A stretch of 64,000 nucleotides of DNA. Origin: Escherichia coli. GTDB lineage: Bacteria; Pseudomonadota; Gammaproteobacteria; Enterobacterales; Enterobacteriaceae. The position numbers were made by a program, and so were the translations under genes. A model generated the notes under the pieces. The model saw only the letters and a program-made list of their open reading frames with translations, made no database searches and was not told the origin of the DNA. The DNA lies in the NCBI RefSeq assembly GCF_024223415.1, contig NZ_CP100500.1; one strand, written 5' to 3'. Position 1 is the stretch's first letter, and every line of letters begins with the position of its first letter. Shown piece after piece: positions 5,891 through 42,926 of the stretch.

Positions 5891-7147
5891 CTAAACGTTA
5901 TCGTGGGGTGGCTGTTGCTTCGGACGATTGACCATCATCATCGGCTTACCTGCTAATAACAGCCATGCCGGAAGCATGACGATACAGAGCAGCGGTAGCA
6001 ATGTGGTATTGGGTACAACGACTGCCGCCATAAAAAGACTTAACCAGCCATCGCGTGTTACCACCAGCACGATGCCGAGAATAGCGCAGGAAACGGTTAT
6101 TGCCGCTGGTACGGCGGGAACGTGCTCATGCAGCATCAACCCTAATGCCACGCCGACAAACACTGCCGGGAAGATTCGCCCACCGCGAAAGCCACTGGCG
6201 GCAGCAACGACCAGGGCGGCAAGTTTAATTACCGCCAGCAAAAAGTAATCGCTGGTGCTGAAAGCCTGATTTGCCACCATCTGCTGCATCTCATCCAGCC
6301 CTTTAAACAGCGAAACTGGTCCACCAATAACCCCCAGAATACCGAGAATAAATCCACCAATACCCAGCACGAGCACCGGATTTTTCATTTGATGCATCAT
6401 CGCGTGCAACCGTGGTAAGCACCATACGGCGACCATCCCTGCTGCGATGGCAATCGCCGCGACAATTGCACCGCTGAGAATATCGGTCATTTCCATCTGT
6501 CCGTAATGCGCAATGGGCAATGAAAAATGAGGATGGAAAAATAATCCGGTAGTAAGTGCACCAGCTGCTGCCGCCATTAACGGCGCAAAAAGACGATCCC
6601 ATAGCGGAACTTCACTACTGCCATTTAAGGTTTGCGAAAATATCAACGCCGCCGCAACAGGTGTACCAAACAGCGCGCCGATGGTTCCGGCAGAGGCTAA
6701 AATAGTCCACTCCATTCGGTTGACGCGCGGTAACAGACGAGCGCCAATGGCAACCGCAAGGGCGATATTGACGGTCATGATCGGATGTTCCGGCCCCAGG
6801 CTGACGCCGCCAGCAAGACCGAGAATTAATGCTACGATAAGTCCTGGTAGCGCAGAGGGCGGAACCGGTGCGCCGATCAGCGGTTCACAGGCGGGGTCTG
6901 GTCCGGCATGACCCTGGCTGAAACGGATAACCAACCCCACCGCAATACCCGTTAGCGTTAATACACCGATGATCCAGAGAGGTGAATCCTGTGCTATTCC
7001 CAGAGTTCCCGGCAGTCGTTGCCAGAGCAAATTCTGTAATACCGAGGCGATTTTCATCACCACAATCAGAATAAGACTGGACGCAATCCCAATTGCCACG
7101 GCGGGGAGCGATAATAACAACATGGTTCTGGCTCGCGGATGGAGCAT
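5891..7147 (-). CDS. yfeO: Putative ion channel/transporter YfeO (ClC-like family)
   Basis: 418-aa polytopic membrane ORF between ypeC and glk, in the conserved position of yfeO. Confidence 0.85.
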
Positions 7148-36245: not shown

Positions 36246-37574
36246 TTAGCGGCCTTTTGCCAGATATTGCTCCATCTCTTCTTCCGGCACCATTCCACCT
36301 CCCGTCGCCCACACCAGATGAGTGGCATTACGCAGTTGTTCTGCGCTGAAACCGTGCATCTGTTGGTAACTTACTGATGCGCACACGCGCTGAGGCCCGG
36401 CCATACCCGCCAGTGCCGAAGGTTCAAGACGAATACCTTCTTCCTGCGTCAGCCAGCCAAGCATGTCATACATGGTTGGATCGCTAAGGGTATAGAAGCC
36501 ATCCAGCAGACGCTCCATTGCCCGCCCGACAAAGCCTGATGCGCGACCAACAGCAAGGCCATCCGCTGCGGTAAGGTTGTCGATACCAATATCCTGAACA
36601 GAGATCTGATCGTGTAATCCTGTATGGACGCCTAACAGCATACAAGGGGAGTGCGTTGGTTCGGCAAAAAAACAGTGAACATGATCGCCAAACGCCAGTT
36701 TAAGTCCGAATGCGACGCCACCAGGACCACCGCCAACACCACACGGCAGATAGACAAACAGAGGGTTATCAGCATCGACGATACGACCTTGCTCGGCAAA
36801 TTGCGCTTTAAGACGCTGGCCAGCGACGGAATACCCAAGGAACAACGTGCGGGAATTTTCGTCATCAATAAAGAAACAGTTCGGGTCAGACTGCGCTGCT
36901 TTACGTCCTTCCTCGACGGCAACACCATAATCTTGCTCATATTCCACGACCGTAACGCCATGGCTGCGCAGTTTCGCTTTTTTCCATGCCCGGGCATCAG
37001 CAGACATATGCACTGTCACCTTAAAGCCAATGCGGGCGCTCATAATGCCGATTGATAACCCCAGATTTCCGGTTGAGCCCACAGCAATGCTGTATTGGCT
37101 AAAGAACTGTTTAAACTCCGGAGAAAGCAGTTTGCTGTAGTCATCATCAAGCGTCAGCAACCCCGCTTCCAGAGCCAGTTTTTCTGCGTGTGCCAGGACT
37201 TCATAAATCCCGCCGCGTGCTTTTATGGAGCCGGAAATGGGCAAATGGCTATCTTTTTTCAGTAACAGTTGCCCGCTGATCGGTTGTTGATATTCCTTTT
37301 CCAGCCGTTTTTGCATAGCCGGAATGGCAACCAGTTCTGATTCAATAATCCCCCCAGTGGCAGCAGTTTCAGGAAATGCTTTTGCCAGATAGGGTGCAAA
37401 ACGGGATAAGCGCGCATGGGCGTCCTGAACATCCTGTTCGGTCAGGCCAACATAAGGTAAACCTTCAGCCAATGAGGTCGTGCCAGGATTAAACCAGGTG
37501 GTTTCTTTAAGAGCAACCAGATCCTTTACCAACGGATACTGGGCGATGAGCGAGTTCATTTTAGCGTTTTCCAT
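36246..37574 (-). CDS. dsdA: D-serine ammonia-lyase (D-serine dehydratase)
   Basis: 442-aa ORF starting [31 protein letters not shown], with the PLP-lysine region SGSIKARGG. Confidence 0.95.
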
Positions 37575-37591: not shown

Positions 37592-37810
37592 TTAGATGAT
37601 AAATGACAGCAGGAATGTGCCCGCCAGAGCGACGACTGAAGCGATAAATGTCGCTGTCGTATAGTATTTAAATGTTTCATTGAGCGTAGCGCCGCAATAT
37701 TGCTTCACCAGCCAGAAAAGCGAGTCCGTAACGATCGTGCAGCCAATCGCGCCTGAACCGATAGCAATCGTAATAATTTCCGGGCTGATGTCGGGATACA
37801 GCGGCAGCAC
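37592..37810 (-). pseudogene. dsdX: 3' remnant of D-serine permease gene dsdX (C-terminal ~72 codons only)
   Basis: Short ORF encoding the GntP-family C-terminal TM segments ([56 protein letters not shown]) directly upstream of dsdA; no N-terminal coding sequence follows, only the cscR upstream region. Confidence 0.75.
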
Positions 37811-38040: not shown

Positions 38041-39036
38041 ATGGCTTCATTAAAGGATGTCGCACGCCTGGCGGGAGTGTCGATGATGACAGTCTCCCGG
38101 GTGATGCATAATGCAGAATCTGTGCGTCCTGCAACGCGTGACCGCGTATTGCAGGCAATCCAGACCCTGAATTATGTTCCTGATCTTTCCGCCCGTAAGA
38201 TGCGCGCTCAAGGACGTAAGCCGTCGACTCTCGCCGTGCTGGCGCAGGACACTGCTACCACTCCTTTCTCTGTTGATATTCTGCTTGCCATTGAGCAAAC
38301 CGCCAGCGAGTTCGGCTGGAATAGTTTTTTAATCAATATTTTTTCTGAAGATGACGCTGCCCGCGCGGCACGTCAGCTGCTTGCTCACCGTCCGGATGGC
38401 ATTATCTATACTACAATGGGGCTGCGACATATCACGCTGCCTGAGTCTCTGTATGGTGAAAATATTGTATTGGCGAACTGTGTGGCGGATGACCCAGCGT
38501 TACCCAGTTATATCCCTGATGATTACACTGCACAATATGAATCAACACAGCATTTGCTCGCGGCGGGCTATCGTCAACCGTTATGCTTCTGGCTACCGGA
38601 AAGTGCGTTGGCAACAGGGTATCGTCGGCAGGGATTTGAGCAGGCCTGGCGTGATGCTGGACGAGATCTGGCTGAGGTGAAACAATTTCACATGGCAACA
38701 GGTGATGATCACTACACCGATCTCGCAAGTTTACTCAATGACCACTTCAAATCGGGCAAACCAGATTTTGATGTTCTGATATGTGGTAACGATCGCGCAG
38801 CCTTTGTGGCTTATCAGGTTCTCCTGGCGAAGGGGGTACGTATCCCGCAGGATGTCGCCGTAATGGGCTTTGATAATCTGGTTGGCGTCGGGCATCTGTT
38901 TTTACCGCCGCTGACCACAATTCAGCTTCCACATGACATTATCGGGCGGGAAGCTGCATTGCATATTATTGAAGGTCGTGAAGGGGGAAGTGTGACGCGG
39001 ATCCCTTGCCCGCTGTTGATCCGTTGTTCCACCTGA
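38041..39036 (+). CDS. cscR: LacI-family sucrose operon repressor CscR
   Basis: ORF 37855..39036; a 331-aa product from MASLKDVARLAGVSMMTVSRVMHN has a LacI-type HTH followed by a periplasmic-binding-protein-like domain. Confidence 0.85.
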   Translation: MASLKDVARLAGVSMMTVSRVMHNAESVRPATRDRVLQAIQTLNYVPDLSARKMRAQGRKPSTLAVLAQDTATTPFSVDILLAIEQTASEFGWNSFLINIFSEDDAARAARQLLAHRPDGIIYTTMGLRHITLPESLYGENIVLANCVADDPALPSYIPDDYTAQYESTQHLLAAGYRQPLCFWLPESALATGYRRQGFEQAWRDAGRDLAEVKQFHMATGDDHYTDLASLLNDHFKSGKPDFDVLICGNDRAAFVAYQVLLAKGVRIPQDVAVMGFDNLVGVGHLFLPPLTTIQLPHDIIGREAALHIIEGREGGSVTRIPCPLLIRCST

Positions 39037-39043
39037 TATTATG

Positions 39044-40486
39044 CTAACCCAGTTGCCAGAGTGCTCCATGTTGCACCACAGCCACTCCGTGGGAGGCATA
39101 AAGCGACAGTTCCCGTTCTTCTGGCTGCGGATAGATTCGACTACTCATCACCGCTTCCCCGTCGTTAATAAATACTTCCACGGATGATGTATCGATAAAT
39201 ATCCTTAGGGCGAGCGTCTCACCCTGCGGGAGGAGAATACTACGGTAGCCGTCTAAATTCTCGTGTGGGTAATACCGCCACAAAACAAGTCGCTCAGATT
39301 GGTTATCAATATACAGCCGCATTCCTGTGCCGAGCTGTAATCCGTAATGTTCGGCATCACTGTTCTTCAGCGCCCACTGCAACTGAATCTCAACTGCTTG
39401 CGCGTTTTCCTGCAAAACATATTTATTGCTGATTGTGCGGGGAGAGATAGATTGATGCTGCTGGCGTAACGACTCAGCTTCGTGTACCGGGCGTTGTAGA
39501 AGTTTGCCATTGCTCTCTGATAGCTCGCGCGCCAGCGTCATGCAGCCTGCCCAGCCTTCACGTTTTGAGGGCATTGGCGATTCCCACATATCCATCCAGC
39601 CGATAACAATACGCCGACCATCCTTCGCTACAAAGCTTTGTGGTGCATAAAAGTCATGCCCGTTATCAAGTTCAGTAAAATGCCCGGATTGTGCAAAAAG
39701 TCGTCCTGGCGACCACATTTCGGGTATTACGCCACTTTGAAAGCGATTTCGGTAACTGTATCCCTCGGCCTTCATTCCCTGCGGGGAAAACATCAGATAA
39801 TGCTGATCGCCAAGGCTGAAAAAGTCCGGACATTCCCACATATAGCTTTCACCCGCATCAGCGTGGGCCAGTACGCGATCGAAAGTCCATTCACGTAATG
39901 AACTGCCGCGATAAAGCAGGATCTGCCCCGTGTTGCCTGGGTCTTTCGCCCCGACTACCATCCACCATGAGTCGGCTTCACGCCACACTTTAGGATCGCG
40001 GAAGTGCATGATTCCTTCTGGTGGAGTGAGGATCACACCCTGTTTCTCGAAATGAATACCATCCCGACTGGTAGCCAGACATTGTACTTCGCGAATTGCA
40101 TCGTCATTACCTGCACCATCGAGCCAGACGTGTCCGGTGTAGATAAGTGAGAGGACACCATTGTCATCGACAGCACTACCTGAAAAACACCCGTCTTTGT
40201 CATTCTCGTCTCCTGGCGCTAGCGCAATAGGCTCATGCTGCCAGTGGATCATATCGTCGCTGGTGGCATGTCCCCAGTGCATTGGCCCCCAGTGTTCGCT
40301 CATCGGGTGATGTTGATAAAACGCGTGATAACGATTGTTAAACCAGATCAGGCCGTTTGGATCGTTCATCCACCCGGCAGGAGGCGCGAGGTGAAAATGG
40401 GGATAGAAAGTGTTACCTCGGCGCTCGTGAAGTTTTGCTAGTGCGTTTTGCGCCGCATGCAATCGAGATTGCGTCATTTTTATCAT
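39044..40486 (-). CDS. cscA: Sucrose-6-phosphate hydrolase / invertase CscA (GH32)
   Basis: 480-aa ORF with GH32 motifs (WMNDPNG, FRDP, EC); the true start may be Met-4 (MTQSRLHAAQ) at 40477. Confidence 0.9.
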   Translation of the reverse strand: MIKMTQSRLHAAQNALAKLHERRGNTFYPHFHLAPPAGWMNDPNGLIWFNNRYHAFYQHHPMSEHWGPMHWGHATSDDMIHWQHEPIALAPGDENDKDGCFSGSAVDDNGVLSLIYTGHVWLDGAGNDDAIREVQCLATSRDGIHFEKQGVILTPPEGIMHFRDPKVWREADSWWMVVGAKDPGNTGQILLYRGSSLREWTFDRVLAHADAGESYMWECPDFFSLGDQHYLMFSPQGMKAEGYSYRNRFQSGVIPEMWSPGRLFAQSGHFTELDNGHDFYAPQSFVAKDGRRIVIGWMDMWESPMPSKREGWAGCMTLARELSESNGKLLQRPVHEAESLRQQHQSISPRTISNKYVLQENAQAVEIQLQWALKNSDAEHYGLQLGTGMRLYIDNQSERLVLWRYYPHENLDGYRSILLPQGETLALRIFIDTSSVEVFINDGEAVMSSRIYPQPEERELSLYASHGVAVVQHGALWQLG

Positions 40487-40510
40487 CCTGGTTAAGCAAA
40501 TTTGGTGAAT

Positions 40511-40524
40511 TGTTAACGTTAACT
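40511..40524. promoter_or_regulatory. Candidate CscR operator (copy 1) in the cscA-cscK divergent promoter region
   Basis: TGTTAACGTTAACT, with palindromic core GTTAACGTTAAC; an identical copy lies 64 nt away. Confidence 0.45.
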
Positions 40525-40574
40525 TTAATAAAAATAAAGTCCCTTACTTTCATAAATGCGATGAATATCACAAA

Positions 40575-40588
40575 TGTTAACGTTAACT
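40575..40588. promoter_or_regulatory. Candidate CscR operator (copy 2)
   Basis: Second exact copy of TGTTAACGTTAACT. A CRP-like half-site TGTGATCGAATATGCA follows at about 40598..40613. Confidence 0.45.
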
Positions 40589-40692
40589 ATGACATTTTGT
40601 GATCGAATATGCATGTTTTAGTTAATCCATGACGATTTTGCGAAAAAGAGGTTTATCACTATGCGTAAGTCAGATGAATTTAAGGGAAAAAA

Positions 40693-41607
40693 ATGTCAGC
40701 CAAAGTATGGGTTTTAGGGGATGCGGTAGTAGATCTCTTGCCAGAATCAGACGGGCGCCTACTGCCTTGTCCTGGCGGCGCGCCAGCTAACGTTGCGGTG
40801 GGAATCGCCAGATTAGGCGGAATAAGTGGGTTTATAGGTCGGGTCGGTGATGATCCTTTTGGTGCATTAATGCAAAGAACGCTGCTAACTGAGGGAGTCG
40901 ATATCACGTATCTGAAGCAAGATGAATGGCACCGGACATCCACGGTGCTTGTCGATCTGAACGATCAAGGGGAACGTTCATTTACGTTTATGGTCCGCCC
41001 CAGTGCCGATCTTTTTTTAGAGACGACAGACTTGCCCTGCTGGCGACATGGCGAATGGTTACATCTCTGTTCAATTGCGTTGTCTGCCGAGCCTTCGCGT
41101 ACCAGCGCATTTACTGCGATGACGGCGATCCGGCATGCCGGAGGTTTTGTCAGCTTCGATCCCAATATTCGTGAAGATCTATGGCAAGACGAGCATTTGC
41201 TCCGCTTGTGTTTGCGGCAGGCGCTACAACTGGCGGATGTCGTCAAGCTCTCGGAAGAAGAATGGCGACTTATCAGTGGAAAAACACAGAACGATCGGGA
41301 TATATGCGCCCTGGCAAAAGAGTATGAGATCGCCATGCTGTTGGTGACTAAAGGTGCAGAAGGGGTGGTGGTCTGTTATCGAGGACAAGTTCACCATTTT
41401 GCTGGAATGTCTGTGAATTGTGTTGATAGCACGGGGGCGGGAGATGCGTTCGTTGCCGGGTTACTCACAGGTCTGTCCTCTACGGGATTATCTACAGATG
41501 AGAGAGAAATGCGACGAATTATCGATCTCGCTCAACGTTGCGGAGCGCTTGCAGTAACAGCGAAAGGGGCAATGACAGCGCTGCCATGTCGACAAGAACT
41601 GGAATAG
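40693..41607 (+). CDS. cscK: Fructokinase CscK (PfkB/ribokinase family)
   Basis: 304-aa ORF with PfkB-family motifs (N-terminal GDAVVD, C-terminal DSTGAGDAF). Confidence 0.9.
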   Translation: MSAKVWVLGDAVVDLLPESDGRLLPCPGGAPANVAVGIARLGGISGFIGRVGDDPFGALMQRTLLTEGVDITYLKQDEWHRTSTVLVDLNDQGERSFTFMVRPSADLFLETTDLPCWRHGEWLHLCSIALSAEPSRTSAFTAMTAIRHAGGFVSFDPNIREDLWQDEHLLRLCLRQALQLADVVKLSEEEWRLISGKTQNDRDICALAKEYEIAMLLVTKGAEGVVVCYRGQVHHFAGMSVNCVDSTGAGDAFVAGLLTGLSSTGLSTDEREMRRIIDLAQRCGALAVTAKGAMTALPCRQELE

Positions 41608-41678: not shown

Positions 41679-42926
41679 ATGGCACTGAATATTCCATTCA
41701 GAAATGCGTACTATCGTTTTGCATCCAGTTACTCATTTCTCTTTTTTATTTCCTGGTCGCTGTGGTGGTCGTTATACGCTATTTGGCTGAAAGGACATCT
41801 AGGGTTGACAGGGACGGAATTAGGTACACTTTATTCGGTCAACCAGTTTACCAGCATTCTATTTATGATGTTCTACGGCATCGTTCAGGATAAACTCGGT
41901 CTGAAGAAACCGCTCATCTGGTGTATGAGTTTCATCCTGGTCTTGACCGGACCGTTTATGATTTACGTTTATGAACCGTTACTGCAAAGCAATTTTTCTG
42001 TAGGTCTAATTCTGGGGGCGCTCTTTTTTGGCCTGGGGTATCTGGCGGGATGCGGTTTGCTTGACAGCTTCACCGAAAAAATGGCGCGAAATTTTCATTT
42101 CGAATATGGAACAGCGCGCGCCTGGGGATCTTTTGGCTATGCTATTGGCGCGTTCTTTGCCGGCATATTTTTTAGTATCAGTCCCCATATCAACTTCTGG
42201 TTGGTCTCGCTATTTGGCGCTGTATTTATGATGATCAACATGTGTTTTAAAGATAAGGATCACCAGTGCGTAGCGGCGGATGCGGGAGGGGTAAAAAAAG
42301 AGGATTTTATCGCAGTTTTCAAGGATCGAAACTTCTGGGTTTTCGTCATATTTATTGTTGGGACGTGGTCTTTCTATAACATTTTTGATCAACAACTTTT
42401 TCCTGTTTTTTATGCAGGTTTATTCGAATCACACGATGTAGGAACGCGCCTGTATGGTTATCTCAACTCATTCCAGGTGGTACTCGAAGCGCTGTGCATG
42501 GCGATTATTCCTTTCTTTGTGAATCGGATAGGGCCAAAAAATGCATTACTTATCGGTGTTGTGATTATGGCGTTGCGTATCCTTTCCTGCGCGCTGTTCG
42601 TTAACCCCTGGATTATTTCATTAGTGAAGCTGTTACATGCCATTGAGGTTCCACTTTGTGTCATATCCGTCTTCAAATACAGCGTGGCAAACTTTGATAA
42701 GCGCCTGTCGTCGACGATCTTTCTGATTGGTTTTCAAATTGCCAGTTCGCTTGGGATTGTGCTGCTTTCAACGCCGACTGGGATACTCTTTGACCACGCA
42801 GGCTACCAGACAGTTTTCTTCGCAATTTCGGGTATTGTCTGCCTGATGTTGCTATTTGGCATTTTCTTCCTGAGTAAAAAACGCGAGCAAATAGTTATGG
42901 AAACGCCTGTACCTTCAGCAATATAG
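41679..42926 (+). CDS. cscB: Sucrose:H+ symporter CscB (MFS oligosaccharide:H+ symporter family)
   Basis: 415-aa 12-TM ORF starting MALNIPFRNAYYRFASSYSFLFFISWSLWWSLYAIWL, LacY-like. Confidence 0.9.
   Translation: MALNIPFRNAYYRFASSYSFLFFISWSLWWSLYAIWLKGHLGLTGTELGTLYSVNQFTSILFMMFYGIVQDKLGLKKPLIWCMSFILVLTGPFMIYVYEPLLQSNFSVGLILGALFFGLGYLAGCGLLDSFTEKMARNFHFEYGTARAWGSFGYAIGAFFAGIFFSISPHINFWLVSLFGAVFMMINMCFKDKDHQCVAADAGGVKKEDFIAVFKDRNFWVFVIFIVGTWSFYNIFDQQLFPVFYAGLFESHDVGTRLYGYLNSFQVVLEALCMAIIPFFVNRIGPKNALLIGVVIMALRILSCALFVNPWIISLVKLLHAIEVPLCVISVFKYSVANFDKRLSSTIFLIGFQIASSLGIVLLSTPTGILFDHAGYQTVFFAISGIVCLMLLFGIFFLSKKREQIVMETPVPSAI

Follow-up and report, generated by a model that had tools for sequence, protein, structure and literature searches.

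Two identical palindromic motifs lie between the divergently transcribed genes cscA and cscK of an Escherichia coli sucrose locus, and the questions that they raise are which protein recognizes them and how two such sites could control two transcription units. The locus was analysed within a stretch of 64 kb (the window), and the genes were identified from the open reading frame listing, from NCBIfam scans and from the RefSeq annotation of the identical locus of strain SCU-316. On the minus strand, cscA (39044-40477) encodes a sucrose hydrolase of 477 aa, an invertase of the sucrose-6-phosphate hydrolase family (TIGR01322, 475 bits), and is annotated as such in the SCU-316 locus. The plus strand carries cscK (40693-41607), encoding a fructokinase of 304 aa (NF006957, 506 bits), and cscB (41679-42926), encoding a sucrose:H+ symporter of the LacY family of 415 aa (TIGR00882, 594 bits). 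It also carries cscR (38041-39036, start as annotated), which is convergent with cscA and encodes a repressor of 331 aa with LacI-family NCBIfam matches; the domains of the CscR homologues are PF00356, PF00532 and PF13377. The original prediction had named the genes of the divergent region as we find them, but its left boundary implied the longest-ORF start of cscA at 40486. The annotated start is at 40477 (MTQSRL...), with AGGA before it at 40486-40489, and the cscA-cscK intergenic region is therefore 40478-40692, a length of 215 bp.

Across positions 30000-52000, identity of the window to E. coli KV7 is 100.0% and to SCU-316 99.9%, and the csc intergenic region was found in 2663 of the 5426 complete E. 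coli genomes. The csc genes are flanked by dsdA, a dsdX remnant and a tRNA-Arg. By the annotation of the identical SCU-316 locus, dsdX is left as a 3' remnant beside cscR and dsdA is intact (37592-37810 and 36246-37574), the result of a known event at the argW hotspot in which csc replaced dsdCX. Deletions in this dsd/csc area can bring dsdA under the cscA promoter (PMC7486766).

The 14-nt motif TGTTAACGTTAACT is present in exactly two copies in the 64-kb window, at 40511-40524 (O1, proximal to cscA) and at 40575-40588 (O2, distal), both written here as on the plus strand, so that the two exact copies reported initially are indeed there. Their spacing had been given as 64 nt, which holds as the distance from start to start; the actual gap between the copies is 50 nt. 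The core of each copy, GTTAACGTTAAC (40512-40523 in O1 and 40576-40587 in O2), is a perfect palindrome of 12 nt with CG at its centre, as had been claimed. The flanking T...T of TGTTAACGTTAACT is not complementary, so the symmetry of the 14-mer is 13/14. With up to two mismatches allowed, no other site like TGTTAACGTTAACT was found in the whole 64-kb window, in which O1 and O2 were also read on the opposite strand; 0.22 matches were expected from such a search, and the observed count was reached in none of 100 dinucleotide-preserving shuffles. When the two copies are compared, their likeness stops after 17 nt, so that they are neither a recent tandem duplication nor a duplicated block. An Rfam scan of 39800-41200 (E<=1) returned no family, and there is thus no sign of a known RNA element in that interval. 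What we find is a palindrome with a central CG step, of the class of about 14-20 bp to which LacI-family operators belong, located in the promoter region of catabolic genes that adjoin a gene for a LacI-family regulator.

To see how far the motif follows the regulator, 22 CscR homologues were aligned and one genome per species was scanned, giving 80 loci in Enterobacterales, Orbaceae (Gilliamella) and Pseudomonas whose encoded proteins are 48-96% identical to CscR. Exact GTTAACGTTAAC is present in 72 of these 80 loci, with 90 copies against an expectation of 0.076 in the 1.27 Mb that they cover, and nearly all of the copies are situated in the regulatory region of adjacent genes for a GH32 hydrolase and a transporter. 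Symmetrization of 106 sites gave the consensus aaaTGTTAACGTTAACAttt, a 14-bp palindrome, and the 14-bp operator consensus from the 80 loci is TGTTAACGTTAACA. Few stretches of the CscR homologues are as conserved as the recognition-helix peptide VS[LM]MTVSR, and this high conservation fits an operator that does not change. Pairs of operators were found in 54 loci. From start to start, the members of a pair are 64 bp apart in 32 loci, 63 bp in 10 and 62 bp in 2; the outlying genera have 57 bp (8 loci, all Gilliamella) and 69 bp (2 loci, Proteus). O1 and O2 correspond to the proximal and the distal operator, respectively, of this conserved arrangement, and in about 70 species the sites accompany cscR, with their spacing fixed.

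The same picture was obtained at closer range from 12 sequences, namely the window, 10 other E. coli strains, among them a divergent csc allele, and Pluralibacter gergoviae. In this alignment both 14-mers are invariant and their flanks are variable, a phylogenetic footprint beside orthologous regulators such as LacI-family operators leave. That the repeat arose by chance, or is a non-functional remnant, for example of a duplication, has only the AT-rich context in its favor and is extremely improbable: the shuffles did not reproduce it, the copies are alike over their 17 nt only, and the invariance of the sites amid diverging flanks, together with the excess of exact copies in the 80 loci, already refutes such an origin on the evidence of conservation. 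The divergent allele mentioned above is that of E. coli SCPM-O-B-8794 (L002:8001-12877), in which amino-acid identity is 96% for CscR, 92% for CscA, 93% for CscK and 95% for CscB; the operators are unchanged there, and the inner CRP site, TGTGATTATCATCACA, matches perfectly.

A few loci have copies of the motif in other places. In Gilliamella (L031:7826-7851 and L034:7827-7852), two overlapping operator-like sites, TTTAACGTTAAC and GTTAATGTTAAC, 14 bp apart, are found between a cscB-like gene and cscR, in addition to the pair spaced by 57 bp between cscA and cscK. In the Pseudomonas loci L066-L081, whose CscR homologues are about 50% identical, a single exact copy of GTTAACGTTAAC (e.g. L069:2114-2125) precedes the regulator gene by about 5.9 kb and apparently heads a long operon ending in a GH32 gene and cscR. 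In Escherichia sp. ESNIH1 (L053:421-432), an exact GTTAACGTTAAC lies about 7 kb from a csc-like control region with no blasted csc-type gene nearby, and could be an extra member of the regulon or a chance copy. In the window itself, no third operator, for example upstream of cscR, was found within the csc region at two mismatches or fewer, and further matches with two mismatches, at 6951, 18460 and 32838, are at the level of chance.

These sites have a published history. As Jahreis et al. 2002 is reported in PMC11251922 and PMC3938415, the cscA-cscK region contains a 12-bp inverted repeat in duplicate, whose two copies are putative CscR operators, and a point mutation in one of them leads to derepression of csc and to growth at low sucrose. 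A mutation of the cscKB operator was isolated again in PMC3938415 and permits low-sucrose growth; the same paper cites a bidirectional csc promoter with two cAMP-CrpA sites and describes a cyaA::Tn5 mutant that is unable to use sucrose. A 2024 paper (PMC11251922) has the repeats on both sides of the cscA -35/-10 elements, the downstream repeat over the start site, and a Crp-cAMP site adjoining the -35 element. A comparison with published csc operator mapping, suggested in the original prediction as a check, therefore leads to the same two 12-bp repeats, according to the papers that cite Jahreis et al. 2002. For the csc regulon of EC3132/W (Jahreis et al. 2002, J Bacteriol 184:5307; Sabri et al. 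2013, AEM 79:478), the accounts in PMC11251922 and PMC3938415 agree with the window in locus, intergenic region and the two 12-bp repeats, likewise with a Crp site at the cscA -35 element, two cited cAMP-CRP sites and a derepressing operator mutation. On these accounts nothing essential differs from the window, which has a rare allele (A at 40527 and T at 40623) outside the operators.

The csc sites are termed putative operators in papers of 2014 and 2024 (PMC3938415, PMC11251922), and an EMSA or footprint of CscR on O1 or O2 was not found in the accessible literature; a full-text search for the string GTTAACGTTAAC returned unrelated papers only. Expression data are available from EHEC, in which the absence of cscR raises cscA 58-fold, cscK 156-fold and cscB 28-fold (PMC7486766, 2020), and cscR provided in trans restores repression of the cscA promoter (PMC7486766). 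Because the cscR deletion raises all three genes, both divergent units are under CscR control. The proposal that the motifs are candidate CscR operators is thus supported by published genetics, by the adjacent cscR gene and by the phylogenetic footprint, with binding still putative. The further proposal that they serve both promoters stands in so far as both units are repressed by CscR, while an action of O2 on cscK from about 85 bp upstream is something that we infer. O1 and O2 are the published sites of the sucrose repressor CscR, and the finding is correct and already known.

Could another protein of the same family be the one that binds? An AACGTT centre is common to many LacI-family operators, which counts in favor of a different regulator, such as Cra/FruR or a plasmid-borne or chromosomal ScrR. 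Some E. coli also have csc and scr loci together (PMC11251922). However, the motif tracks a gene for a CscR homologue through many genera, as the 72 loci attest, deletion of cscR alone derepresses the locus and the gene in trans restores repression (PMC7486766), and non-orthologous sucrose regulators are reported with clearly different motifs (PMC4052901). Binding by such a protein is therefore very improbable. The ScrR operators flanking the scrY promoter of pUR400/Klebsiella (Cowan 1991; Jahreis and Lengeler 1993; via PMC11251922, whose account we follow) also belong to a LacI-family sucrose repressor, but this regulator is not orthologous to CscR and its motif is reported to be different (PMC4052901). 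The scr genes specify a PTS-type pathway, unlike csc, and the upstream csc operator, again unlike scr, is located beyond a CRP site and between two CRP sites.

O2 is flanked by a CRP-like site on each side. The inner one, CRP1 (40557-40572, TGCGATGAATATCACA), is located between O1 and O2 and matches TGTGA-N6-TCACA at 9/10 positions; its centre is 17 bp from that of O2 and 47 bp from that of O1. The outer one, CRP2 (40598-40613, TGTGATCGAATATGCA), begins 9 nt after O2, with 24 bp between the two centres, and it has one perfect half-site and a 7/10 match, the TGTGATC being invariant in the 12-sequence alignment. Measured from the core of O2, TGTGA of CRP1 is 3 bp away and TGTGA of CRP2 is 10 bp away. 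The original prediction had mentioned a CRP-like site after the second copy of the motif; this is CRP2, which is real and conserved but is the weaker of the two, and the stronger CRP1 had been missed. We equate CRP1 with the Crp site that the literature places at the cscA -35 element (PMC11251922).

This architecture recurs where operators are paired. Of the 54 loci concerned, 51 have their best inter-operator CRP-like site centred at 17-18 bp from the distal operator, and 40 have the best outer site exactly 24 bp beyond it. Stacking of the regions with 64-bp spacing, with the catabolic operon reading one way, gave a conserved order in which the outer CRP-like site comes first, followed by the distal operator and the inner CRP site (consensus TGTGATTAACATCAca); after about 30 variable bases come the proximal operator and the first gene. 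In the window, the corresponding order is CRP2, O2, CRP1, a putative core promoter, O1 and cscA, and the distances within the module are fixed. A match to the consensus, at only 7/10 in the case of CRP2, and conservation in orthologous promoters speak for both as CRP sites.

Neither a consensus sigma-70 promoter nor a terminator was found by scans of 40400-40760. The empty promoter scan is compatible with weak, CRP-dependent promoters, and putative elements can be proposed from conservation and geometry. For cscA, the candidate -10 element is TATTTT (40531-40536, minus strand), proposed from the geometry and from its TAT, which is conserved in Escherichia, Pluralibacter and Serratia. It would place the start of transcription at about 40523, inside or at the edge of O1, and CRP1 at about -41.5, which is the usual class II position for CRP. 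For cscKB, the candidate is TATCAC (40654-40659, plus strand), an instance of a TATCA[CA] hexamer that follows the 16-mer of CRP2 by 39-40 bp in Escherichia, Pluralibacter and Rosenbergiella, where the surrounding sequence has diverged. With this hexamer the predicted start of cscK would be at about 40666, CRP2 at about -60.5/-61.5 (class I) and O2 in the vicinity of -85. Every position given relative to +1 depends on the model, in which the conserved TAT-type hexamers serve as -10 elements.

Two other candidates were rejected. An extended -10 element TGACATTTT (40590-40598) would give a cscK promoter with O2 over the -35 element and spacer, but most strains have G in place of its A at 40594, a polymorphic position, and Pluralibacter is without the element. 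The hexamer TATAAA/TATTAA (40530-40525, minus strand) as the -10 element of cscA is not conserved in position outside E. coli, and only the conserved TAT at 40536-40534 gives CRP1 at -41.5.

The predicted cscK promoter bears on how the two operators would act. Perhaps each operator simply blocks RNA polymerase at one promoter, O1 at that of cscA and O2 at that of cscKB. We regard this as unlikely: there are 105 nt from the end of O2 to the cscK ATG, and O2, being upstream of both CRP2 and the TATCA[CA] hexamer, consequently has no overlap with the likely core promoter of cscK. Moreover, the same pair, with its 63-64 bp spacing and inner CRP site, is found in more than 15 loci in which blast detected no csc-type gene distally, as well as in about 25 loci whose only divergent gene is cscR. 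The retention of the pair without a divergent catabolic gene indicates that it brackets, as a unit, the promoter on the O1 side, and PMC11251922 likewise places both operators around the -35/-10 elements of cscA. With neither operator over the likely cscK core promoter, and cscK yet the gene most derepressed without cscR, the simplest reading is that CscR, when bound to O2, prevents the binding or the action of cAMP-CRP at the two promoters.

We therefore consider it very probable that O1 and O2 are the operators of CscR in a composite region of the order CRP2-O2-CRP1-promoter-O1, in which O1 occludes the start of cscA and O2 counters cAMP-CRP. In the absence of inducer, a CscR dimer on O1 would cover the transcription start of cscA and block RNA polymerase. 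A second dimer on O2, against CRP1, would keep cAMP-CRP from activating either promoter, that of cscA from CRP1 at about -41.5 and the divergent one of cscKB from CRP2 near -61. CscR would be freed by sucrose or one of its products, and cAMP-CRP could then activate both units. What we infer in this scheme are the start sites and -10 elements, that CscR is a dimer, and that O2 serves in anti-activation.

A different use of the pair would be DNA looping, with a CscR tetramer or two interacting dimers bridging O1 and O2 and trapping CRP1 and the cscA promoter in a loop of 64 bp. Such a distance corresponds to about 6.1 helical turns, which would put O1 and O2 on the same face of the DNA, and a spacing of 63-64 bp is found in 42 of the 54 pairs. 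On the other hand, a loop of 64 bp is very tight, and CscR, at 331 aa, aligns with residues 5-329 of LacI and with nothing beyond, so that it is without the C-terminal segment by which LacI tetramerizes. The spacings of 57 bp in Gilliamella and 69 bp in Proteus are out of phase. In Gilliamella, the distance from operator to CRP site is kept (18 bp) and that from the CRP site to the proximal operator is shifted by 8 bp, which suggests that the constraint comes from promoter elements rather than from the phase between the operators. Looping between O1 and O2 is accordingly possible but less likely, and we give it a low probability. Looping among lac O1, O2 and O3 by tetrameric LacI likewise involves multiple LacI-family operators around a CRP-dependent promoter, but the CscR sequence has no segment aligned to the LacI tetramerization helix, and the csc operators are 64 bp apart, with some genera departing from that phase.

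Repression through CRP, as proposed here for O2, has parallels. In CytR-CRP anti-activation (deoP2/cdd) and in the case of GalR at gal OE, a LacI-family repressor located upstream of the core promoter, near or between CRP sites, lowers activation and does not occlude RNA polymerase. CytR sites are imperfect, depend on contact with CRP and go together with tandem CRP sites at a distance of about 52-53 bp. O2 resembles the CytR module in being flanked by two CRP sites. In contrast, csc has 41 bp between its CRP centres and, as operator, a perfect and highly conserved palindrome of high information, so that the CytR-specific features compared here are absent and the likeness is one of outline only. 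Also unlike the case of CytR, we know of no protein-protein contact of CscR.

Tentatively, and with more doubt than for the scheme as a whole, the distal operator might be part of a conserved anti-activation module, kept in more than 40 species at 24 and 17 bp between two CRP sites, with cscKB of E. coli repressed from about -85 through exclusion or disabling of cAMP-CRP and not through a block of RNA polymerase. If this were true, CscR would be a second and structurally simpler example of repression in the style of CytR or GalR at OE. The accessible literature calls the two csc sites only 'operators', and the fixed CRP-operator-CRP geometry, with its implication for the control of cscKB, may be the only part of this analysis that goes beyond that literature. 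The sites themselves, their assignment to CscR and the dependence on CRP have been in print since 2002, with re-examinations in 2013 and 2024, and the finding adds little. What the 80-locus comparison provides is a precise and testable map, with a 14-bp consensus, two CRP sites and fixed spacings, and it raises the question of how cscK is repressed 156-fold from an operator about 85 bp upstream of its predicted start. The csc region also serves strain engineering for sucrose feedstocks, in which the repressor and the native promoter are usually deleted or replaced.

Finally, some strains show natural variation in the control region. The window has A at 40527, directly beside O1 on the promoter side, so that the cscA-sense sequence is TATTAA, compared with TATAAA in other strains, and T at 40623 is the second position at which it differs from all other strains of the 12-sequence sample. 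The exact 83 bp of 40478-40560 are present in only 6 of 2512 E. coli genomes, those listed as identical being SCU-316, GPEC1446, NCTC9112 and KV7. SCU-316 has csc and yet does not grow on sucrose, with 'no obvious genetic defect' (PMC11251922), and the promoter-region SNP at 40527 is a candidate cause of this failure. In E. coli MDP9-27 (NZ_CP146515.1), only 26% of the query 40400-40760 was matched and the annotation there has cscA beside an MFS transporter, which points to natural loss, by deletion, of cscK and the greater part of the control region.
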